50,126 nucleotides of DNA from a phage. Below the pieces are notes generated by a model that saw only the letters and a program-made list of their open reading frames with translations, did not search any database and was not told the DNA's origin. Shown piece by piece: positions 5,440-47,459 of this stretch (position 1 is its first letter; each line of letters begins with the position of its first letter). The translations under genes were made by a program, and so were the position numbers. Where the stretch lies: sequence record PZ445405.1; one strand, written 5' to 3'.

Positions 5440-6873
5440 ATGGCTAGCGAATTAAGAGCAGTAACCGCTGGGACTGCCCACGCCCTAAAGCAAAAAATCA
5501 TGGAATACATTGCTGATGGTTGGCAGCCTTATGGAAGAATCCTTAACGCTGGAGCGACTAGCGTTGGTATCATCATGGCGAAAGGTACTACAGCAAGCAT
5601 TAATGATGTTGATGTTATTACCGCAGATTCAAGGGCTTCTTTAGTTTCTAAGATTAACTCATCCATCGAAAATGGGTTTGAGATGTTCGGAGAGCAGGAA
5701 GTGAACGCAAGTAGATTTATCGCCTTCATGACTAAGGGTTCTCAAGGTTCATCTGGTGGCGGTGGAGAACCTGGACCAATTGGGCCTAAGGGTGAGAAGG
5801 GTGACAAGGGCGACAAGGGAGATGTTGGTGAGCGCGGACCCGCTGGCCTAGCTGGTGCGGCTGGCGCTACTGGTCCATCTGGCCCTCAAGGTTTAACTGG
5901 CCCCGCCGGCGCTAAAGGTGATACTGGTGAGCAGGGACCAATGGGTCCAACTGGCGCTACTGGACCTAAAGGTGATACTGGCGAAACTGGTCCCGCCGGA
6001 CCGCAGGGCCCAAGAGGATTGCAAGGTGAGCAGGGGGTTCCGGGCGAGGTTGGTCCTGCTGGATTGACATTCCAGGGCGCATGGGATTCTGCTGCGACAT
6101 ATGTGAAGGATGACACTGTAGTTTATGATGGGTCTACTTGGTTTGCTCCAGATGCTGTAGCTGCTGGATTAGTCCCTGGAGTTGCTACTGAGTGGATTCT
6201 TTTAGCTGCGCAAGGCGCAAGGGGCGAGGATGGTCCGCAGGGTCCGGTTGGCCCTCAGGGTTTACAGGGTGCCACTGGCCCAGCGGGTCCTACTGGTGCT
6301 ACTGGTGCTACAGGCCCGCAAGGCCCTAGAGGTATACAAGGTCAAACTGGCCCGGCAGGCCCAGCAGGTCCTCAGGGTGAGGCTGGTCCTCAGGGTATTC
6401 AGGGTCCGCAGGGTGTCGCTGGGCCTCAGGGATTAACTGGTCCTCAGGGTCCAAAAGGTGATAAAGGCGATGCTCCTTACACATTATTTAACTCGCAGAA
6501 CGTTACATCAACATACATTGAAATCCCTATTCCGCAAGTAACCAACACTGTACTTAGGGTTAGGCTTTCAGGTGCCAACTTTGAATATAGCGTTTTAAGC
6601 AAAGGCGGCGCCAATAGATATGTTGACTTTTACACATTCATCCCGTCATTAACTAGCTCAACGGGTAACATCTATACCGGAGGAACTACCTTGACACCAA
6701 CTGGTAGCCTCTTTTTGGGTAACTCCCCCGTGGCTCTTGGATTGAGGGAGTTGACAATAACACTCAAGGAATGGGGCGACAGAACGCTAACTACAATAAA
6801 GGCGATACATCACGGCAGATCAGGTGACACAACAAGACCTTTGCAGATAACTATGTTTAGTAATAAGTATTAA
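5440..6873 (+). CDS. Collagen-like (Gly-X-Y repeat) protein, probable virion fibre
   Basis: Two long uninterrupted G-X-Y tracts ([20 protein letters not shown].. and [22 protein letters not shown]..) flanked by globular N- and C-terminal domains. Confidence 0.8.
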
Positions 6874-10569: not shown

Positions 10570-10573
10570 TTGC

Positions 10574-10650
10574 ATAGCACTTTTTGCCAAAGATCTTATT
10601 CAACTTTGCTGTATAGTTACCTCATCGAAACGAAATGAGAGATTAAAGAA
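10574..10650 (+). promoter_or_regulatory. Promoter cassette, T-rich-centre variant (ATAGCACTTTTTGCCAAA, 22 bp, TATAGT 10612-10617, leader CATCGAAACG)
   Basis: Same geometry as the canonical cassette; drives the lipoprotein ORF. Confidence 0.55.
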
Positions 10651-14908: not shown

Positions 14909-15664
14909 ATGTTAAGTCCAAAGTTTGAAAATCAGTTGCAAAGCCTTTTCCCTGGCGAAATTGTGACACTAATCCAGGTTGATGGCACCTCCTTTGGCGG
15001 TCTCGTTTATTCGTTCCATAATGAGAACATTTCATACACGCCAGAGGAAATCATGCTGGCCCAGATGAATGGCGATCCACTACCAGAGAAGACAATCACA
15101 TTTCGCGGAGAGGAATATGGACCTCGCCCATTCGGAATCTCTGGTATCAATATGACCTCTGACGGAAAGGCCAACAAAGTGACGCTAACAGTATCAAACG
15201 TAGACCAGCGAATTAGCGCATTGATTCGAACATACAATGGACTGGTTAGGGCTAAGGTTACTATCTGGATTACTACGCGAGACAACATCAACGAAGATGG
15301 AAGCATTGCTGATGGGGACTATCGCAGGTTCGTTTACTTCATTGAGAGACCAAAGCAGGTTGATTACAAAACGGCATCATTTGAGCTTAGCTCACCTATG
15401 GATATGGATGGAATTTACATTCCTGCGAGACTTGTTCAGTCTGTTTGCTATTTTGCCTCCAGGGGATGGTATCGAAGTGGTAATGGGTGTTCATATGCTG
15501 GTAACAGATACTTTAACAAGGATGATGAGCCGGTGGCAGACCCTTCATTAGACTTCTGTGCGGGAACTGTTAACAGCTGCAAGCTTAGATTCGGTGAGAA
15601 TAATCAGTTGGATTTTGGCGGTTGCGCGGCGGCAAGCCTTCAGGCAAAAGCGAATCAAAGCTAA
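14909..15664 (+). CDS. Minor tail protein (lambda gpL-like) with C-terminal Cys cluster
   Basis: C-terminal cysteines (CYFASRGW..GCSYAG..FCAGTVNSC) as in the lambda L iron-sulfur motif; position. Confidence 0.75.
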   Translation: MLSPKFENQLQSLFPGEIVTLIQVDGTSFGGLVYSFHNENISYTPEEIMLAQMNGDPLPEKTITFRGEEYGPRPFGISGINMTSDGKANKVTLTVSNVDQRISALIRTYNGLVRAKVTIWITTRDNINEDGSIADGDYRRFVYFIERPKQVDYKTASFELSSPMDMDGIYIPARLVQSVCYFASRGWYRSGNGCSYAGNRYFNKDDEPVADPSLDFCAGTVNSCKLRFGENNQLDFGGCAAASLQAKANQS

Positions 15665-15738
15665 ATAGCACGAATTGCTAAACACCAACGCGACGGATGG
15701 CGTATAGTTACTTCATCGAAACGAGAGGAGATAAATAA
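15665..15738 (+). promoter_or_regulatory. Canonical promoter cassette (box 15665-15682, TATAGT 15703-15708, leader CATCGAAACGAGAGGAG)
   Basis: Near-identical to the cassette at 537-611; TTGCTA to TATAGT spacing 22 bp. Confidence 0.6.
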
Positions 15739-24299: not shown

Positions 24300-24640
24300 C
24301 ACAGTTACACGTAACCGATGTAACTCGATGTATACAATCTCGTCCGCGGAAAATGGTATACGCCCTGTTACGCCTGGTTACGCTATAGTTACATTAAAAT
24401 ATCTATATATATCAACCTTTTACTCTTATTATTATTATTATATATATTACTATGTATATCATGTAACTACTTCTATGGAGTGTTCCGGTTGTAATTTTAA
24501 TATCATGTGGATTTATACAGTATCTAACAATCAGCATAGCAACGCACCCTCCTTGAAGAATGGTATACACGATATACACGCTGGTTACATTGAGCTATAG
24601 CTGGTCTGGGGTGCCAAAAAGCGTAACTAGTGGCAGTGCC
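24300..24640. repeat. Iteron plus microsatellite control region A (paralog of region B at 42866-43200)
   Basis: CGATGTA x2 at 10-bp spacing (24316, 24326), GTTACGC x2 at 10-bp spacing (24367, 24377), (TA)n 24394-24402, (TTA)5 24426-24440, palindrome AGCTATAGCT 24593-24602; same motif order as region B. Confidence 0.7.
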
Positions 24641-24961: not shown

Positions 24962-25927
24962 ATGAGCTTTAAAGTTTTTACGCGAGAGGAACTAAGCAAC
25001 GAGGCTTATCATAACGAGACTGAGCATATATCAGGCAGTTCAATTGTCGAGATTATCCAGGGCTCTCCGGCTAAGTGGAAGTTTAAACAGCGTAATAATG
25101 ATAGCAAGGCTCTTAAGTTCGGAACGCTGAGTCACACATACATCCTAGAGGGTGACGTGTTTGATAAAGAATACCTGAGAGCAACTGACCTTGACTCAAT
25201 TGAAGGATTGATTACCAGCCAAACCGGTTTGGCTGCGGCACTTAAGAAAGTTGGTGTGGCTGGCACGTCAGGGAAGGGGTATGGCGAGCTTGTAGAGATG
25301 ATGTATCGCTCTGGTGAGGATTGGCCTGTTAAATGGCTAATTGAGCAGAAGGAGAGCGCTCAGGCGCTTGTGGAGGGTAAGGAGTTAGTTAGCGCAGCGG
25401 ACTACGACAAAGTGGTGGCGATGCGTGAGGTTCTTTGCAATATTCCGGCATACGATAAGATTGTTAATAGTGAGACGGCGCAGAAGGAGTTATCAATCTT
25501 CGGTGAGATTCTAGGCGTTGGCGTTAAGATTCGAATCGACCATGTTGACGTTATTGATGGAGTCGTTCGGATCACAGACTATAAAACGACAGCGGACGCA
25601 AGCCCTGAGGGATTTGGCAAATCGGCATTCTCGCACGGGTACCTTGCAAAAATGTCGCTTCAGCGCGATCTGTTTGTGAAGGCATTCAACGAGAAGCGAA
25701 AGGTTGTTGTGGGATTGTTAGCACAGGAGAAGGTAGAGCCATACTTACCAATGCTTTACACCTTGACGGACGAGCAGTTACGAATTGGTAGGTTGCAGTA
25801 TCTTGAGGCGTTGGCCACTTATAAGAAGTGCAAGGAGCTAGATATCTGGCCGGGGTACTCGAATGGGATTACAGAGCAAGAGCTACTAGTTCCTGAGTGG
25901 GCACTGAAACAATACAAAGAAATATAA
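24962..25927 (+). CDS. PD-(D/E)XK-family nuclease, putative recombination exonuclease
   Basis: Motifs IDHVDVIDG and ITDYKT (D..D.K core); genomic context with Erf and SSB. Confidence 0.5.
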   Translation: MSFKVFTREELSNEAYHNETEHISGSSIVEIIQGSPAKWKFKQRNNDSKALKFGTLSHTYILEGDVFDKEYLRATDLDSIEGLITSQTGLAAALKKVGVAGTSGKGYGELVEMMYRSGEDWPVKWLIEQKESAQALVEGKELVSAADYDKVVAMREVLCNIPAYDKIVNSETAQKELSIFGEILGVGVKIRIDHVDVIDGVVRITDYKTTADASPEGFGKSAFSHGYLAKMSLQRDLFVKAFNEKRKVVVGLLAQEKVEPYLPMLYTLTDEQLRIGRLQYLEALATYKKCKELDIWPGYSNGITEQELLVPEWALKQYKEI

Positions 25928-26002
25928 ATAGCACGAATTGCTAAAGACAAAATTAACGAGTGGGGTATGATTGCCCCATCAACAACGAACGAGGTTAAAA
26001 TT
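25928..26002 (+). promoter_or_regulatory. Canonical promoter cassette (box 25928-25945, TATGAT 25966-25971, leader CATCAACAACGAACGAGG)
   Basis: Box overlaps the stop of the upstream gene; 22-bp spacing conserved. Confidence 0.55.
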
Positions 26003-31861: not shown

Positions 31862-33856
31862 ATGTTGCCTATCGAGAAACTGGTTGCCAACTTTGATAAA
31901 GAAAGAATTAAACAGATTCAGAAAGACTATCAGTTTGGCGAGATAACCCCTTACGAGTTCCAGTGCGTCACATTTGATGCAATCGGAAAGGCCATTGGAA
32001 AGTACGAGGCACCATTTATCGCGGACCTTTCCGTGTCTGCTGGTAAGACAATCATTCTGGCTATGATTGGTAAGCGCATGGAGCAGCTTGGGCTTCCTTA
32101 TATGGTTCTCTCTCGCCAGTCAGAAATTATCAGTCAGAACTCAGAAGAGCTTCGTAATTTCGGTATCCGTAACAGCGTCTATTGCGCCGGCCTCAACGTT
32201 AAATCGGTTTACTACCCAACCATAGTTGCTAGCGAGGGTACGGCAGCTAACGGCTTGTTTAAGGGTCTTGGTGACTACGTTCCTGCTGTTATAGCTATTG
32301 ATGAGTGTCATATGGTGGACCATATGGATATCGTGGAAGCTGAAGAGAACGAAGAAACATTTGAGCAAATGAGCACAAAGAAAGGCGAGATGGTTTTCAA
32401 GGATGGTGTTAACACTGGATTGATAGGCACAGGGCGAGCGCAGTACACACTAATTATCACTGAGATGAAACGTCGCTGCCGCGAGAAGTACGGTCGTGAG
32501 CTTCGTATATTCGGTCTAACTGGCAGCCCGTATCGTAACAACGATCATATCGTCGTTAGCAACCCAAACATCCGTGGATTTTGGCGCAAGACGGTTATTC
32601 AGGTTCCAACCAATTACCTGGTTGATTTAGGTTTCGTTGTTCCCACAGTTTACGGTGAAGTTGGCGATCTGGGATATGACCTTGCGGAGTTTGCGCCGGA
32701 TGGCAGTGATGGCGTGAAAGACTTTAGCAAGAAAGAAATGGAAGCGATGCAGGAAAAAATTCATCAAAACCAGTCCATGACTCAAAAGATTATGGGTTTT
32801 GTTGTAAAAATACTAGAGACTCGTAACGCCGCATTGGTAACGTGTGCTGGTAAACTTCACTGCGAAGAAGCTGCTGCAGCGCTACCAGATGGATACCCTT
32901 ACGCCATCATCACAGACTCTACTGGTGAGAGGAAGCGCAGAGAGATTCTTGACGATTGCCAGACAGGGAAGTATAAAATAATATTCCAGATTGGTTGTCT
33001 AACTACGGGGGTGTCGGTTCCACCGTGGGATACAAGCGTTATACTTAGAAAGATCGGCAGCCTTACACTACTGATCCAGCTACTTGGTAGGGGTATGCGA
33101 ATACTCAAGAAGAAACATAAAGAACTTGGAATGGTTAAGGACGATCATTTGGTTCTTGATTTCGCTGGTGCGCTTGATGACATGGCGGAGCTTTACTTTG
33201 ACCCAATTATTGAAGAGATTCAGGCTGAGAAGTTTAAATCATCAAGAAAAGGTGGCGATGAGGTTCGCCAGTGTCCGCAATGTGGTTATGAGAACTCTCC
33301 GTTCGCTCGCAGGTGTGGTAACAAGATTGATGGAAAGCGTTGTGAGCACTTTTTCAGCTTTACGGTTTGTGAAGATATTACTGACCCGCAAACAAAGGCT
33401 GTTATAAAGAAAGGCTGCGGTACTCGCAATGACATAGCAGCAAAGGTTTGCAGGGAATGCGGAGAGATGCTTAAAGACCCAAATGCTAACCTGACTGGCA
33501 AGATGTATCGTCGTGGTGATTACCTTCGTGTTTATGATTTTCAAGTTGGGTTAAGTAAGAATCAGACAGGCATTGTAGTTAAGTACAACATCATGGCGCA
33601 TAACGGAGAGAGGTTTAATGCTTGGGAGTTCTTTAATCCAGAATCAGACCATAGAGTTTGCAGTGTGCTTTGGAAGAACTTCTGCCTTGCTCATATTGAG
33701 AATCGAACTGAGGCCGCGCGAATTGGAAGACTGAAGAATGCCAGAATGATTATGACTAACTTGGATAAGTTCCGTGCGCCAGTTCAGGTTACACACCGAA
33801 GGAATGGCAAAGGAAAGGACGTGATCGCTTTTAAGAATTTTGGAGAATTGCTATGA
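31862..33856 (+). CDS. ATP-dependent DNA helicase (SF2-like) with C-terminal zinc-ribbons
   Basis: Walker A-like SAGKT, DECH box (IAIDECHMVD), C-terminal CPQCGYEN..CGNK and CRECGEM Cys clusters. Confidence 0.7.
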   Translation: MLPIEKLVANFDKERIKQIQKDYQFGEITPYEFQCVTFDAIGKAIGKYEAPFIADLSVSAGKTIILAMIGKRMEQLGLPYMVLSRQSEIISQNSEELRNFGIRNSVYCAGLNVKSVYYPTIVASEGTAANGLFKGLGDYVPAVIAIDECHMVDHMDIVEAEENEETFEQMSTKKGEMVFKDGVNTGLIGTGRAQYTLIITEMKRRCREKYGRELRIFGLTGSPYRNNDHIVVSNPNIRGFWRKTVIQVPTNYLVDLGFVVPTVYGEVGDLGYDLAEFAPDGSDGVKDFSKKEMEAMQEKIHQNQSMTQKIMGFVVKILETRNAALVTCAGKLHCEEAAAALPDGYPYAIITDSTGERKRREILDDCQTGKYKIIFQIGCLTTGVSVPPWDTSVILRKIGSLTLLIQLLGRGMRILKKKHKELGMVKDDHLVLDFAGALDDMAELYFDPIIEEIQAEKFKSSRKGGDEVRQCPQCGYENSPFARRCGNKIDGKRCEHFFSFTVCEDITDPQTKAVIKKGCGTRNDIAAKVCRECGEMLKDPNANLTGKMYRRGDYLRVYDFQVGLSKNQTGIVVKYNIMAHNGERFNAWEFFNPESDHRVCSVLWKNFCLAHIENRTEAARIGRLKNARMIMTNLDKFRAPVQVTHRRNGKGKDVIAFKNFGELL

Positions 33857-34272
33857 ACATAACAGATAAAGAAGATTACATTGAGTTTTACCCGGGCCCG
33901 GTTAAGTATTGCCCTAAAGAGGATGACGAGCAAATCTTTTGCTCTGATTGGGTTAAGTATCATTACCCTCAGATTGTTTACTGGCACACGGTTAATGAAT
34001 CGATGAAGACCATTGGACAGGCAAGAAAAGACCAGGCCAAAGGTTTGCTTAAGGGGGTTTCGGACTGCTTATTCCTGATACCTGAATCACTTCGTGGTAA
34101 ATACCCTTTTGGAGCCATAGAGCTAAAAAGGGCCGGGAAGACGCAGGCGAGTCCAGTCAGCGACGAACAGAAGTCCTTCCTTAAGAGCGTCAGAGAATCG
34201 GGCGGCTTCGGGGCTGTAGCTTACGGACGTGAGGGTTTTCTTGCGGCATTCAAAGAAATGATTTCAAAATAG
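33853..34272 (+). CDS. VRR-NUC domain nuclease (putative)
   Basis: Motif GVSDCLFLIPESLRGKYPFGAIELKR (D..E.K core); ATGA coupling to the helicase gene. Confidence 0.55.
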   Translation: MNITDKEDYIEFYPGPVKYCPKEDDEQIFCSDWVKYHYPQIVYWHTVNESMKTIGQARKDQAKGLLKGVSDCLFLIPESLRGKYPFGAIELKRAGKTQASPVSDEQKSFLKSVRESGGFGAVAYGREGFLAAFKEMISK

Positions 34273-34350
34273 CACGAATTGCTAAAGACGTTTCGGTGAG
34301 TTGGTGTATTATCTATTCATCGAAACGAAACGCACAAAGAGAGAAACAAA
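34269..34350 (+). promoter_or_regulatory. Canonical promoter cassette (box 34269-34286, TATTAT 34307-34312, leader CATCGAAACGAAACG)
   Basis: Box contains the TAG stop of the upstream gene; 22-bp spacing. Confidence 0.55.
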
Positions 34351-34641
34351 ATGGCTACTATCTATACTGGTAAATTCTACGAATCACGCAAAACTGGTTA
34401 TGAGTATGAATTAGTAATAACCCCAGAAGGTTATGTACTTGATGATGGTGAAGGGTACGCATTCGAAGTTAGCCCGACTTACAAAGATGATTTAGAAACT
34501 GTTAAAAACGCATTTGGCGAAAAATTTGATGTTATTGATGATGGTGATGGCTACGCATTCGAAGTTAGCCCAACCTACAAAGATGATTTAGAAACTGTTA
34601 AAAACGCATTTGGCGAAAAAATTGATGAGGTATCAGAGTAA
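34351..34641 (+). CDS. Hypothetical acidic protein with internal 32-aa tandem duplication
   Basis: Two 96-bp direct repeats (34441-34536 and 34537-34632) encoding DDGEGYAFEVSPTYKDDLETVKNAFGEK twice. Confidence 0.5.
   Translation: MATIYTGKFYESRKTGYEYELVITPEGYVLDDGEGYAFEVSPTYKDDLETVKNAFGEKFDVIDDGDGYAFEVSPTYKDDLETVKNAFGEKIDEVSE
34441..34632 (+). repeat. Tandem 96-bp in-frame duplication (2 units, about 93% identical)
   Basis: Direct comparison of the two units shows only about 7 substitutions. Confidence 0.8.
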
Positions 34642-34862
34642 TGGCAATTTTTACACTTGAAAAACAATGGGAAGTTTTCCAGTCGATGGTGGATCAGGAG
34701 TTGCATAAAGCTGGGTATAAACATGAAGGCTGGGATATGGCTTGGTGCCTGGATATGAGCTTTGAAGAAGACTACCTGAATACTGATATCGAAACGTGGC
34801 GCGACCGCATGGTTGCAGACATTGAAGAAATGAAGAAAGATTGCCCGGAGGATTTCTTATGA
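34641..34862 (+). CDS. Hypothetical protein (73 aa)
   Basis: TAATG overlap with the upstream gene. Confidence 0.4.
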   Translation: MAIFTLEKQWEVFQSMVDQELHKAGYKHEGWDMAWCLDMSFEEDYLNTDIETWRDRMVADIEEMKKDCPEDFL

Positions 34863-35050
34863 TTGGAATCTGCGTAAAAACAAATGGACGCTTTACACTG
34901 CTCGAGGATTACGAAATCAACTTTGATTCAGGCGGCGCAATAACAGTAAAAGGAGAAGATGAATTACATTGGTTCCTTAGTTATCAAGGTGATGGCTACT
35001 ACGGTTGCACGGATTGCTACGGAAAAGAAGTTAGCTTCTTAGTAGAATAG
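34859..35050 (+). CDS. Hypothetical protein (63 aa)
   Basis: ATGA overlap with the upstream gene; SD GGAG. Confidence 0.35.
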   Translation: MIGICVKTNGRFTLLEDYEINFDSGGAITVKGEDELHWFLSYQGDGYYGCTDCYGKEVSFLVE

Positions 35051-35120
35051 CACTTTTTGTTAAAACTCAAATCCAGGGATGGATTATATTAAGCACATAA
35101 ACAACGAAGAGGGTTAAGAG
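35047..35120 (+). promoter_or_regulatory. T-rich-centre cassette (ATAGCACTTTTTGTTAAAAC, 22 bp, TATATT 35085-35090)
   Basis: Box overlaps the TAG stop of the upstream gene; leader with SD AAGAGGG. Confidence 0.5.
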
Positions 35121-35246
35121 ATGAAAATTGTAGACAAAGAGATGTTCGAGATCGCACAAGCATACGCAAATGACGCAGTTAAAACTGGTTCGGAATACTG
35201 CTGGATGTGCGCTAAAGAATACCTGAAAATGGCTTACGGGTTATGA
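35121..35246 (+). CDS. Hypothetical small protein (41 aa, CWMC motif)
   Basis: First ORF after the cassette; ATGA-coupled to the next ORF. Confidence 0.3.
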   Translation: MKIVDKEMFEIAQAYANDAVKTGSEYCWMCAKEYLKMAYGL

Positions 35247-35828: not shown

Positions 35829-36959
35829 ATGGCAACTGCAAAAATCACCAACGAACAATTGCGCGAAGAGCTAGCAAATGGCATGACCAACAAGGCAATC
35901 GCAGAGAAGTACGGAATGAACATTCGCAACGTTGAATTGCGTCGCAGTAAATTAGCGAAGAGTGGAGAATTGCACGGAAACCCGGGAATCAAGAAGTTAG
36001 TTCCTGACGGCTATTTGGTCAAAGGGACGTCAACGATGATTGACGCTGAGGGCAACGAAAAGATTCGCTGGGTTAAGACCTCTGTAGATAATGAGCGCCT
36101 TGAGGTTTTGATGGAACAGGCTCGAGAGGCATTCTGCTCTGAGTTGCCAAAGGCAGATTCGGTCACCCACTCAGGCAATGAGGTCAACTCTGAATTAATG
36201 ACTCTTTACCCTATTTTCGATATCCATATCGGCATGATGGCTCATCGACATGAGTCTGGTGAAAATTATGACACCAATACCGCAGAGAAATTAATGGAAT
36301 CATATTTCGATCATGCAATTTCTGTATCGCCATCCTCAGAGAAAGCTGTGATTTTAGTTGGCGGCGACTTCCTTCACTCTGACGGATTGGAAGCTGTAAC
36401 CCCAGCAAGCGGACACTGCCTTGATCAGGATAGTAGGTATGCTAAGTTAGTTTATGTTGCGATTCGCTCAATTCGTGGTGCCGTAGAGAAGATGCTTAAG
36501 AAGCATAAGAATGTCGAGATTCAGATTATAGAGGGAAATCATGACCAGAGTGGTATGATTTGGCTCCGTGCGGCAATGGCTGCATTTTATGAAAACGAGA
36601 GTCGCGTCTTTGTTGATACCAGTCCGGCAATCATGCACAAAACTAGATTTGGCTCAACATTACTTGGTTACACACACGGCCACACAATGAAGAAGGCAGA
36701 AGGCAGGCTTGCAGCTATGGCAACTGATTACAGGAAAGATTTTGGTGAGTGTGAATTTGTTTATTGCCATTCCGGGCATTTTCACCACGCAACTGTTACA
36801 GAGTGCACACTTGGGATTGATGAGGTTCACCCAGCCCTGGCTAGCAAGGATGCATATGCCGCTCGCGGAGGGTGGCGATCATATCGCCAAGCGGCTGCAA
36901 TTGTTTACCACAAGAATTTTGGCGAGGTTGGTCGACACATTTATCGCCCCGGTATGTAA
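35829..36959 (+). CDS. Calcineurin-like metallophosphoesterase with N-terminal HTH-like domain
   Basis: Phosphoesterase motifs DIHIG, GGDFLH, GNHD, GHTH, GHFH in canonical order. Confidence 0.6.
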   Translation: MATAKITNEQLREELANGMTNKAIAEKYGMNIRNVELRRSKLAKSGELHGNPGIKKLVPDGYLVKGTSTMIDAEGNEKIRWVKTSVDNERLEVLMEQAREAFCSELPKADSVTHSGNEVNSELMTLYPIFDIHIGMMAHRHESGENYDTNTAEKLMESYFDHAISVSPSSEKAVILVGGDFLHSDGLEAVTPASGHCLDQDSRYAKLVYVAIRSIRGAVEKMLKKHKNVEIQIIEGNHDQSGMIWLRAAMAAFYENESRVFVDTSPAIMHKTRFGSTLLGYTHGHTMKKAEGRLAAMATDYRKDFGECEFVYCHSGHFHHATVTECTLGIDEVHPALASKDAYAARGGWRSYRQAAAIVYHKNFGEVGRHIYRPGM

Positions 36960-39338: not shown

Positions 39339-40922
39339 TCACCCCAGCAGTCGTGGATTAATGTAAACTTTATCACCAATCAGGCATGTATAGTTTTTCT
39401 CATCTAACATCGGCAGCAAGTGGTCTTTAATCTTTGTCATCACTCCAGCCTGAGACTCGAACGGCTTAACCTTGCGCGCAGCCTCATACAATGAACGAAT
39501 GCCAACTACGCCTTTCCCGTTCTTTCCTTGCTTGATAAGGATATCAATCAGCTTATTCATCTCGGCATTGTCGCCAGCGTGACCAGCGGCGTTAGCAGAT
39601 GACAGATAAGTCTTGCTAAGCTCCTGGAACATGATTACAGCCTCTTGCATTGTGTCCAGTCCAATCTCTCTGGACTTCTGCGGGCTTCCGCCATTTGGGT
39701 TAAACCAGTTACGGACAGTGTGAATAACTGCGGCAATCCTGATAGCCTGCTTATCGAACTTGCCCAGCGCGCCGCGCAACATAGTATGTGAATACTTACC
39801 GCCATCAGCAAGATGGGGCTCCATTTCCTGACGTGCACGGTTGAGATATTTCATCGCTGAGTTACTCACTGTCAGCTTTACTTCCTGCTCGCTCATGATT
39901 TCGTGAACCAAGCGGAAGTAGTCAGCCTTCAGTCCGCTGTCAATTGGCTCGTATGTTGACTCTCCATTCTCATCAACGAATACACGTTCGCCCAGGAAGG
40001 ACTTTTCACGCACAAGCAGAAAACGCTCCGACACACCGATACCACGCGCACCAGCATTCATAATGGCGTTGATTGTTTCGTCCTGCGCAATTACCGAGAT
40101 GCAACCCATAGCAACGAAACTCATGTTGTTCTCTGCGTTCGCACGCGCGATAGATACGTTACCAGCATCCCATGCTTTAAGCACGAGTTCACTGTTTGTT
40201 TTCTTTGAGCCATCTCCATAGGTCATGCCCAGAAGTGAGTTCACGCTCGTCGCCTCATCCGAGATTACTGCGAAGTTTCCCTGGCGGTTGTTTATTCGCG
40301 CAAGTCCCTCAGGCGTGGTGTCGGATACGGGGAAAACGATATCGCATAGCTTCTCGAGTTTCTCCTCCAACTCCTCTTTCTCTTCAAAAAGTGAAGCCAT
40401 CTCTGAAGGAGATTTTTCCTGCTTCATCTCTTTGGATAATGCAGATAGTTTGGCCATAATCTTTTTGCGCTCGCGTTTTCGCAATTCATTTAGTCGCTCA
40501 GTCTCGGCAATCATCGGGGCAATAGAAAGTGAGTTAATCGCTGATTTACCGGTCGATGGAGGTTGACTTGTAACTACGTAAAGAGATGTTGGCTGCTGCG
40601 TTCCGTGATACTCAACAGTAAAGCGGCCCAGCATAGCAGCGGAAATGCAACCCAAAAAGTGCATATAAGCTGAAGACTCCGGGAACTGAACAGAACGAGC
40701 AATGTTGGCTGACAGTCTACCAACAACGTCAACATCATTTCCGAGCGAGATTACAGGATACTTGTCATTGGCCGCATCAATCTCGACCGGTGCTTTCCAG
40801 AATGACTGAGACTGGCGATAGCCATTAGCATTGATAGCCACGCGCAGGGGTGGGAGGTTTTCTGCGGCAGCTATTGCCATAACTTGTTCAACAGATAGTT
40901 TATCTTCGTTGAAATCAAACAT
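39339..40922 (-). CDS. Replicative P-loop NTPase (primase-helicase / SF3 helicase-like)
   Basis: Walker A PSTGKS and Walker B-like AVISDEAT; N- and C-terminal regions shared with the paralog at 43766-44293. Confidence 0.6.
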   Translation of the reverse strand: MFDFNEDKLSVEQVMAIAAAENLPPLRVAINANGYRQSQSFWKAPVEIDAANDKYPVISLGNDVDVVGRLSANIARSVQFPESSAYMHFLGCISAAMLGRFTVEYHGTQQPTSLYVVTSQPPSTGKSAINSLSIAPMIAETERLNELRKRERKKIMAKLSALSKEMKQEKSPSEMASLFEEKEELEEKLEKLCDIVFPVSDTTPEGLARINNRQGNFAVISDEATSVNSLLGMTYGDGSKKTNSELVLKAWDAGNVSIARANAENNMSFVAMGCISVIAQDETINAIMNAGARGIGVSERFLLVREKSFLGERVFVDENGESTYEPIDSGLKADYFRLVHEIMSEQEVKLTVSNSAMKYLNRARQEMEPHLADGGKYSHTMLRGALGKFDKQAIRIAAVIHTVRNWFNPNGGSPQKSREIGLDTMQEAVIMFQELSKTYLSSANAAGHAGDNAEMNKLIDILIKQGKNGKGVVGIRSLYEAARKVKPFESQAGVMTKIKDHLLPMLDEKNYTCLIGDKVYINPRLLG

Positions 40923-42865: not shown

Positions 42866-43200
42866 CTAATCCATTTTCACGCTTACACGTAACGCCCGTA
42901 GCGCGATGTAAGCCAACGCCTATCGTTACGCGAGTTACGCGCAGCTACGCCTAGACTTACACTATAAGTGCCTAATATATATATATATCTTCTTTCTATT
43001 ATTATTATTATTATTATTATTATTGTATGTAAGTCATGTAACGGGGTTTCCGGCGATATCTATATGTTTTTTCCTATCAGTTATAGCCTTGGCTATAATT
43101 TAAGGTATGGAGTGGGTGTTTTGGGGCCATTTGCCTCGTTACACGCACGACACGCCACTTACATTAAGCTATAGCTGGGCTAGCATACCATTTCGCGTAA
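42866..43200. repeat. Iteron plus microsatellite control region B (paralog of region A)
   Basis: ACGTAAC 42887, CGATGTA 42904, G(T/C)TACGC x3 at 42925/42934/42944, (AT)7 42975-42988, (TAT)9 42997-43023, palindrome AGCTATAGCT 43167-43176. Confidence 0.7.
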
Positions 43201-45732: not shown

Positions 45733-45866
45733 TTTACATCCACACGTACTACACTGGCAAGTTTAACAGTGTTAAGCACATTAGTGTTCACGATACGTAC
45801 GATAGCGCAAAGGCTCAGTGGTTGGTTCTTGGCGGCGATATTAATTCATATAGAGTTGCTGAATAG
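45729..45866 (+). CDS. Hypothetical small protein (45 aa)
   Basis: ATGA-coupled; its TAG stop lies in the next cassette box. Confidence 0.25.
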   Translation: MIYIHTYYTGKFNSVKHISVHDTYDSAKAQWLVLGGDINSYRVAE

Positions 45867-45936
45867 CACTAATTGATAAAACAGCATTGGGGTAATTTGC
45901 TATAGTTACCCCATCGAAACGAGCGAGGTCAAAGAG
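45863..45936 (+). promoter_or_regulatory. Promoter cassette (box ATAGCACTAATTGATAAA, 22 bp, TATAGT 45901-45906, leader CATCGAAACGAGCGAGG)
   Basis: Exact 22-bp spacing. Confidence 0.55.
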
Positions 45937-46293: not shown

Positions 46294-46433
46294 GCTTCAC
46301 TGAATATGTTATAGCATGTGAACGACTGGTCTTTGATATGAAAACTTTCCACTGGTTCATAATTAAAGACTTAATAAAGCCTTACAAGCAGGGCGTTACC
46401 CCAGAGGCGTTTGTTAAGTCATTCTACAAATAG
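46290..46433 (+). CDS. Hypothetical small protein (47 aa)
   Basis: Stop TAG lies inside the next cassette box. Confidence 0.3.
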   Translation: MSFTEYVIACERLVFDMKTFHWFIIKDLIKPYKQGVTPEAFVKSFYK

Positions 46434-46505
46434 CACGAATTGCTAAACGAAGTCGCCACGGATGGCATATAATTACCCTATCAATACAAAGAGAGAGATT
46501 GAGAA
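46430..46505 (+). promoter_or_regulatory. Canonical promoter cassette (box 46430-46447, TATAAT 46468-46473)
   Basis: Hairpin GCCA-cgga-TGGC in the 22-bp spacer, as in the cassette at 537. Confidence 0.55.
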
Positions 46506-47381: not shown

Positions 47382-47459
47382 GCTCTGCTAGCTCAATTGG
47401 ACAGCAGCAACGACCTTCTAAGTCGTAGGTTACTGGTTCGAATCCAGTGCGGAGCGCCA
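47382..47459 (+). tRNA. tRNA-Arg (anticodon TCT)
   Basis: Cloverleaf readable by eye: acceptor GCTCTGC/GCGGAGC (one G-U pair), anticodon stem ACGAC/GTCGT with loop CTTCTAA, T-arm ACTGG-TTCGAAT-CCAGT, encoded CCA; D-stem has one mismatch. Confidence 0.7.

Follow-up and report, generated by a model that had tools for sequence, protein, structure and literature searches.

Adaptive in-frame tandem duplications are known in phage genes (PMC6365445). In the Enterococcus phage EfV12-phi1 duplications of 1.8 kb have been found in a tail-fibre gene, and these were, like the duplication described here, partial, frame preserving and retained in a lytic phage (PMC6365445). The gene concerned is a structural host-range gene, the units are of kilobase scale and vary in copy number, and a link to host resistance has been demonstrated (PMC6365445). 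In contrast, the present case involves a 96-bp unit in a 64-aa accessory gene, with the copy number fixed at two.

The accessory gene belongs to the family phrog_6031 ('unknown function'), on which a functional report was not found in the literature. Examples are GP38 of Escherichia phage phiA2-1 (WRH07498.1), MM01_00049 of vB_EcoS_MM01 and HOS46_gp59 of phage DTL. These relatives are 81–95% identical to the protein studied here over residues 1–62 and have the N-terminus, the C-terminal tail EVSE and the region of an upstream element in common with it. However, they are 62–66 aa in length, or 80–83 aa if the start was annotated further upstream, and have one copy of residues 29–60, whereas our protein has two. 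The counterpart in phage Rtp is probably rtp55, as judged by gene order only.

A further described protein is Gp54 of Escherichia phage Bas11 (JohannLBurckhardt), the structure of which is PDB entry 9AXB (Zhang et al., Nature 2024, PMC11578894). Gp54 consists of 66 aa and forms a six-stranded barrel with a topology that the authors termed 'very rare in nature'; it is non-essential and its function is unknown (PMC11578894). It directly triggers the CapRelSJ46 toxin–antitoxin defence, to which it binds once its terminal strands unfold, and CapRelSJ46 is not activated even by close homologues of Gp54 (PMC11578894).

The stretch of phage DNA analyzed here (the window; 50,126 nt) is, going by its sequence, a distinct Rtp-like coliphage of the Drexlerviridae with about 86% identity to the closest records. 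Positions 33800–35100 match 114 phage records at 80–90% identity, nearly all of them Escherichia phages of the Rtp group of the Drexlerviridae, and the right half of the window reaches about 86% identity to the best records across 58–73% of its length. In addition, short places of 95% to >99% identity to a few records, Klebsiella and Kayfunavirus entries among them, occur within 25200–50126 and suggest that mosaic segments or mobile genes were exchanged recently. A tRNA-Arg with the anticodon TCT (47382–47459, plus strand) was the sole tRNA or Rfam hit of the window. Periodic repeats of 9, 18 and 36 nt (GGTCCTCAGGGTGAC and similar) were seen on the plus strand at 5788–5819 and 6286–6450, presumably coding for collagen-like Gly-X-Y repeats in a structural or fibre gene. 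Two AT-rich tracts of (TAT)n or (TTA)n (24398–24459 and 42974–43024), 80% alike over 51 nt and 18.6 kb apart, may mark the intergenic borders of gene blocks that diverge or converge.

The gene of interest is an ORF of 96 aa on the plus strand (34351..34641, stop included), which was assigned to phrog_6031 by its reading frame, the profile match and its position among orthologues. It holds two adjoining 96-bp units, both in frame, and the encoded protein reads MATIYTGKFYESRKTGYEYELVITPEGY-VLDDGEGYAFEVSPTYKDDLETVKNAFGEKFD-VIDDGDGYAFEVSPTYKDDLETVKNAFGEKID-EVSE. All parts lie on the plus strand. The unique N-terminal part comprises residues 1–28 (34351..34434), as delimited by the AlphaFold models and the alignment. 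In codon register, translation and alignment place copy 1 (VLDDGEGYAFEVSPTYKDDLETVKNAFGEKFD, residues 29–60) at 34435..34530 and copy 2 (VIDDGDGYAFEVSPTYKDDLETVKNAFGEKID, residues 61–92) at 34531..34626; the ancestral C-terminal tail EVSE with the stop codon follows at 34627..34641, and this tail is kept in the homologues. Tandem Repeats Finder reported 34439–34627 with a period of 96, 2.0 copies, 94% matches, no indels and a score of 343 as the sole long-period array of the window.

The original prediction, a tandem duplication that lies in frame within a small acidic protein, thus describes a real feature: the copies are identical at 89/96 positions, and the protein has a pI of 4.10 and a net charge of about −15.5 (24 D+E vs. 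9 K+R). The alignment also bears out that the two units are significantly similar, the probability of at least 89/96 matches by chance being about 3e-42. The repeat search placed the copies at 34433–34528 and 34529–34624 with 93% identity as the best register, and in a scan of registers the identity peaked at 89/96 for unit starts 34433–34436. The units had been located at 34441–34632, where the repeat is indeed found, but the true unit lies about 6–8 nt further upstream. Likewise, the identity of about 93% claimed for them holds in the best register; in the register 34441/34537 it drops to 87/96 (90.6%), because the 3′ end of that register extends into non-homologous sequence.

Four of the seven differences between the copies are synonymous (GTA/GTT, GGG/GGC, CCG/CCA, and ACT/ACC) and three are conservative replacements (L30/I62, E34/D66, and F59/I91 in copy 1/copy 2). 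Gene conversion between the copies was considered but need not be invoked: six differences out of seven are located in the first 45 nt of the unit, which matches where the orthologues vary. The longest identical run between the copies is 45 bp.

The family profile, which has 66 positions, matched the ORF with E = 2.3e-48 and 163 bits. Residues 1–62 fall on profile positions 1–64, and copy 2 forms a second matched stretch. In the orthologues, too, the gene immediately follows the helicase and VRR-NUC genes. With 96 aa against a single-domain length of about 64–66 aa in the family, the ORF is a member with an internal duplication. A comparison of copy number in related phages, which had been suggested as a check, was run and gave one copy in all homologues found and two here alone. 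A tblastn search against 50,697 phage records matched 111 records with one copy in each, the matches either stopping at residue 62–64 or spanning 198 nt with a 32-residue gap. All 12 loci from IMG/VR and all 9 metagenome loci were single-copy as well. Among 5.8 billion protein clusters 139 homologues were found, and the 120 listed measure 62–83 aa. The forms of 79–83 aa result from an upstream start being called, which adds a 16-aa N-terminal extension. Many of the database entries (among loci L001–L022, P0001, P0006, and others) are of this kind; their in-frame start (MGYSYSIETKRRERNK...) falls inside the conserved promoter-like element, and for this reason they are probably over-extended annotations. 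The exact 96-aa protein is not on record, and the junction pattern GGCGAAAAANTTGATGTNNTTGATGATGG was not found in IMG/VR or in 185,579 GTDB species genomes. Given that all homologues found carry a single copy, the duplication is a specific trait of the lineage of this phage; it is present in none of the about 250 known relatives.

A profile search of 1.84 billion representatives added no real relatives, and the family is tiny. One outside match to the unit was obtained, a weak five-fold match (E = 8.6e-5) to P0123 within Big_12 domains. An interpretation as a Big_12 Ig-like repeat-domain protein was rejected, as the P0123 match covers a strand–turn–strand motif only and two copies occur in one sequence alone. 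The Pfam family DUF7686 was discarded too: it scored 19.5 bits against a cut-off of 24, matched copy 2 only, and matched none of 67 single-copy members. A resemblance to a beta–alpha unit like that of ribosomal protein uL23 (E = 0.62) disagreed with both AlphaFold models, which are all-beta, and matches to tau and to a collagen adhesin in the sequence searches were sub-threshold noise. For the ORF protein there was no match in Pfam above threshold, in PADLOC or in the PDB sequence searches.

The duplication junction could be located by direct reading. An ATG triplet is situated at the junction (34529..34531, plus strand), at the left edge (34433–34435), and at the right edge (34625–34627) of the repeat. 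The bases flanking the ATG on either side are mismatched, so that the microhomology amounts to 3 nt. Orthologues end with ...GEKFDEVSE, and the ancestral ends rebuilt from them are ...GGTTATG followed by TACTTGATGATGG and ...TTTGATG followed by AGGTATCAGAGTAA; the ancestral gene reads ...GGT TAT GTA CTT GAT GAT GG... on the left and ...TTT GAT GAG GTA TCA GAG TAA on the right. A 7-nt direct repeat, TTGATGA, was rejected as the duplication site, as it would yield a unit of 87 bp and not of 96 bp. With a microhomology of 3 nt, the likely event was replication slippage, template switching or illegitimate recombination. Slippage or unequal recombination had been put forward as the mechanism; slippage fits the 3-nt junction, but unequal homologous exchange does not and is disfavoured because no repeat existed beforehand.

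As the best explanation of the whole, to which we give a probability of about 0.62, we propose one retained microhomology duplication of part of the phrog_6031 barrel, with an extension that changes surface, valency or oligomeric state. A single microhomology-mediated event at ATG triplets 96 nt apart would have copied codons 29–60 of the 64-aa gene in the lineage of this Rtp-like coliphage of the Drexlerviridae. The duplication, being in frame, would have been retained since, and the copies would have diverged by about 7% after it, mainly at synonymous sites.

The divergence of the copies was analyzed further. With 7/96 differences, dN between them is 0.04 and dS 0.25 (ratio 0.16); there are four changes at 19 synonymous sites and three at 77 replacement sites (Fisher p = 0.027). 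The copies would therefore appear to have been retained under constraint, an argument that rests on seven sites and would be void if the copies stem from two already diverged genomes. The duplication had also been regarded as recent, a view that finds no support, given a dS of 0.25 between the copies and given that each copy is as near to the orthologue of locus L003 as to its partner. Copy 1 differs from the L003 orthologue at 5/96 sites (dS 0.25) and copy 2 at 6/96 sites (dS 0.25), compared with seven between the copies; copy 2 and the L009 orthologue have 10/96 differences and a dS of 0.18. Judged by these distances, the copies are no closer to one another than to orthologues in other phage species. 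The 93% identity of the copies says little on age, because the duplicated stretch is the most conserved DNA locally (88–99% vs. 55–90% in the flanks). The unique N-terminal 28 codons have a dS of 0.26–0.76 to the nearest orthologues. At codon 35 the copies carry GGG and GGC and all others GGT; these are different derived states, and therefore at least eight changes in total are needed. Consequently the duplication is either about as old as the split of the gene from its nearest sampled relatives or was made between diverged co-infecting genomes.

In the latter case, two co-infecting diverged Rtp-like phages would have undergone an out-of-register illegitimate recombination joining the gene end of one parent to codon 29 of the other. 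Most copy differences would then be older than this recombination, which could itself be recent. We regard such an inter-genomic origin as unlikely, but it has to be taken seriously. The distances given above are in favour of it, and at five of the seven sites that vary between the copies the orthologues are polymorphic as well. Copy 2 shares its adjacent CCA-ACC haplotype with L009, L017, and L018, and copy 1 its CCG-ACT with L001, L006, L007, L011, and L016; moreover, the region is strongly mosaic, with a nearest relative that varies by segment. However, the synonymous states shared in this way are transitions at third positions that are hypervariable and where recurrent mutation is to be expected, and 19 synonymous sites provide almost no test power. 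No sampled orthologue is clearly nearer to copy 2 than copy 1 is, and in the segment-wise comparison the sets of nearest relatives of the two copies overlap (L003, L015, and L018). The changes L to I and F to I of copy 2 are found in no orthologue and hence arose after any such event.

That the variant is present in one sequence only could also mean that allelic variants of a single-copy gene from a mixed population were concatenated during sequencing or assembly. This seems very improbable to us. Assembly graphs turn allelic variants into bubbles and not into head-to-tail joins, and collapse or expansion normally yields identical copies, whereas here seven differences separate the copies and two of them are found in no known allele. 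Furthermore, the join is exactly in frame and sits at a microhomology.

The repeat could also act at the level of the nucleic acid, as a pair of protein-binding sites, as an internal promoter or through an RNA structure, the coding duplication being incidental. The stretch of the unit is the most conserved one locally, and among orthologues the synonymous pair differences are 0.12 in codons 44–60 compared with 0.31 in codons 29–43. But synonymous diversity is low in the whole gene, about 0.21 in both halves. The RNA fold of 34420–34645 is no better than that of shuffled sequences (z = 0.48), no Rfam family and no promoter or terminator consensus is present within the ORF, and one copy suffices in every orthologue. 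With this evidence a role of the nucleic acid is hardly to be expected.

The gene neighbourhood consists of a helicase gene (31862–33856, from the gene-order annotation), the gene of a VRR-NUC nuclease (33853–34272, Pfam E = 8e-8), the ORF at 34351–34641, five small function-unknown genes (gene-order annotation), and a DNA-repair exonuclease (35829–36959, phrog_704). The start of this order is shared by phiA2-1. The stop codon TAA of the ORF overlaps the ATG of the next small gene (34641) in the sequence TAATG at 34639–34643, and GAGG at 34627–34630 is likely the ribosome-binding site of that downstream gene. At 35121–35246 on the plus strand a 41-aa ORF of phrog_2180 weakly matches phrog_2055 ('Kil protein for bacterial septation inhibition'; E = 4.7e-4). 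The end of the duplicated ORF together with the 5′ part of the next gene (34641–34862) is the least conserved stretch locally: 34627–34750 is 54–81% identical to 21 of 22 related loci, and the truncated locus L022 aligns at just 15%. The segments on both sides are 85–95% conserved in many related loci. By this comparison a mosaic breakpoint sits immediately 3′ of the duplicated gene.

Directly upstream of the ORF an intergenic element is found (34267..34338, plus strand) that overlaps the stop of the VRR-NUC gene. It was recognized as a repeat family and by alignment as one of seven dispersed copies of about 72 nt, all intergenic and on the plus strand (535–606, 10572–10643, 15663–15734, 25926–25997, 34267–34338, 45861–45932, and 46428–46499). 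The element consists of the palindrome TAGCA-N5-TGCTA, about 20 variable nucleotides, GTATAGTTACC..CATCGAAACGA, a ribosome-binding site and a start codon. The alignment of the seven copies reveals an invariant core, ATAGCAC..TTG..AAA, and a TAT-box, and an ATG is situated 30–45 nt downstream of each. The spacing of TTGCTA and TATAGT is 22 nt, exceeding that of a standard sigma-70 promoter, and a generic sigma-70 scan did not call the element at 34267–34338. From its layout this copy is probably the promoter/operator and leader of an operon opened by the ORF, and the seven copies look like a phage-specific family of promoter/operator and leader sequences at operon starts.

The duplicated protein had been described as a modular repeat protein, and a structure prediction of the repeat module had been suggested. 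For a single-copy homologue AlphaFold2 with an alignment of 67 sequences predicted six strands (4–12, 18–23, 28–31, 37–44, 47–53, and 58–62) and no helix (pLDDT 90, pTM 0.73). Residues 1–28 contain the predicted strands 1 and 2 plus one residue, the first, of strand 3, and the unit (residues 29–60) takes up the larger part of strand 3, all of strands 4 and 5, and strand 6 up to its middle. According to this model, the 32 residues that were duplicated make up half of a tiny beta-barrel and not a self-contained module. The notion of a modular repeat protein is therefore not supported: in the model the unit is part of one six-stranded beta domain and no autonomous module, and all other family members are single-copy.

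In the model of the 96-aa protein the six strands are kept through residues 58–63 by way of the chimeric sequence KFDVID, and copy 2 has a pLDDT below 50; since the alignment covers copy 1 only, this model is biased and blind to which copy completes the barrel. The two copies are not equivalent in sequence, however. L30 and F59 are invariant in 67/67 aligned homologues and both are kept by copy 1, whereas copy 2 has isoleucine at the equivalent positions (I62 and I91), states that are absent from the aligned homologues and the sampled loci. For 18 of 22 orthologous loci the distance to copy 1 does not exceed that to copy 2. Copy 2 evolves under altered constraint, and the asymmetry fits copy 1 as the putative barrel-forming copy.

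The 96-aa model combined with the copy asymmetry gives as the simplest reading a predicted barrel of residues 1–63, with copy 2 and EVSE as an extension. The parent protein would be a small, very acidic, six-stranded beta-barrel-like protein. Residues 1–63 could still close a near-native barrel with the chimeric KFDVID, half from strand 6 and half from strand 3, and copy 2 together with the old tail EVSE would form an acidic, strand-prone C-terminal extension of 33 residues and no added domain. Alternatively, copy 1 could be looped out, or domain swapping could take place between chains. Tandem helix duplications engineered in T4 lysozyme by the Matthews laboratory reportedly behaved in a comparable manner, with sequence-equivalent segments competing for one slot and the surplus being looped out or appended. 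Those proteins were designed and are said to have been solved structurally, whereas the outcome for our protein is inferred.

A Foldseek search of the 96-aa model against the PDB returned nothing below E = 1. With the single-copy model the best matches in BFVD were small uncharacterized Drexlerviridae proteins (TM 0.75–0.86; weak E values of at least 1.6e-3). The top match (ISF001, 69 aa) was rejected as a Gp54 homologue, as the Gp54 homologue of ISF001 is a 64-aa CDS instead; the sole 69-aa CDS of ISF001, presumably the BFVD match, is acidic and has no evident similarity by eye.

The comparison with Gp54 was made by means of the predicted model and suggests a resemblance of fold and lifestyle, not membership in the same family. 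The sequences are 10% identical with an hhalign probability of 0.04, 9AXB was not hit by the ORF protein in a PDB sequence search at E up to 10, and tblastn of Gp54 on the window gave nothing significant and no homologue. The genomic positions differ as well: in Bas11 a Dam methylase occupies the slot after VRR-NUC, and gene 54 is part of a leftward operon (39780–39980). Homologues of Gp54 occur in Tempevirinae and Tunavirinae (215 records), whereas phrog_6031 occurs in Rtp-like phages; the families are thus spread over separate subfamilies of the Drexlerviridae.

As to the function, the ORF protein may be a dispensable host-interaction protein, a prediction that we make tentatively and with the odds somewhat against it. 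The idea is based on four features: the protein is small and strongly acidic, its gene opens an operon of small genes in the replication/recombination region, and its distribution is patchy. The protein may be a non-essential binder of a host or defence protein, and the extension would change its surface, valency or oligomeric state rather than create a new activity.

In relatives the matching region is annotated with exonuclease VIII-type recombination genes. With an identical run of 45 bp and phage recombination genes at hand, the loss of one copy by recombination should be easy. Since the repeat nevertheless persisted through 7% divergence, the 96-aa form would seem to be at least tolerated and possibly favoured.

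It is a long shot that the phrog_6031 proteins are divergent relatives or analogues of Gp54, that is partly unfolding barrels that act against host factors and are sensed by immunity, and that the duplication is adaptive. If so, duplicating strands 3–5 would hide a surface from a CapRel-like sensor or would make a bivalent, domain-swapping inhibitor, and the case would exemplify the natural evolution of a trigger or inhibitor via partial-domain duplication and not via point mutation or gene loss.

The duplication is a one-off structural variant of an uncharacterized phage accessory gene and thus a small evolutionary curiosity and a natural experiment. For a family that has no assigned function the possible fold-level resemblance to Gp54 is a testable lead. 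Small non-essential beta-barrel proteins of the Drexlerviridae may represent a class of proteins that recurrently serve as host-interaction factors and immune triggers.
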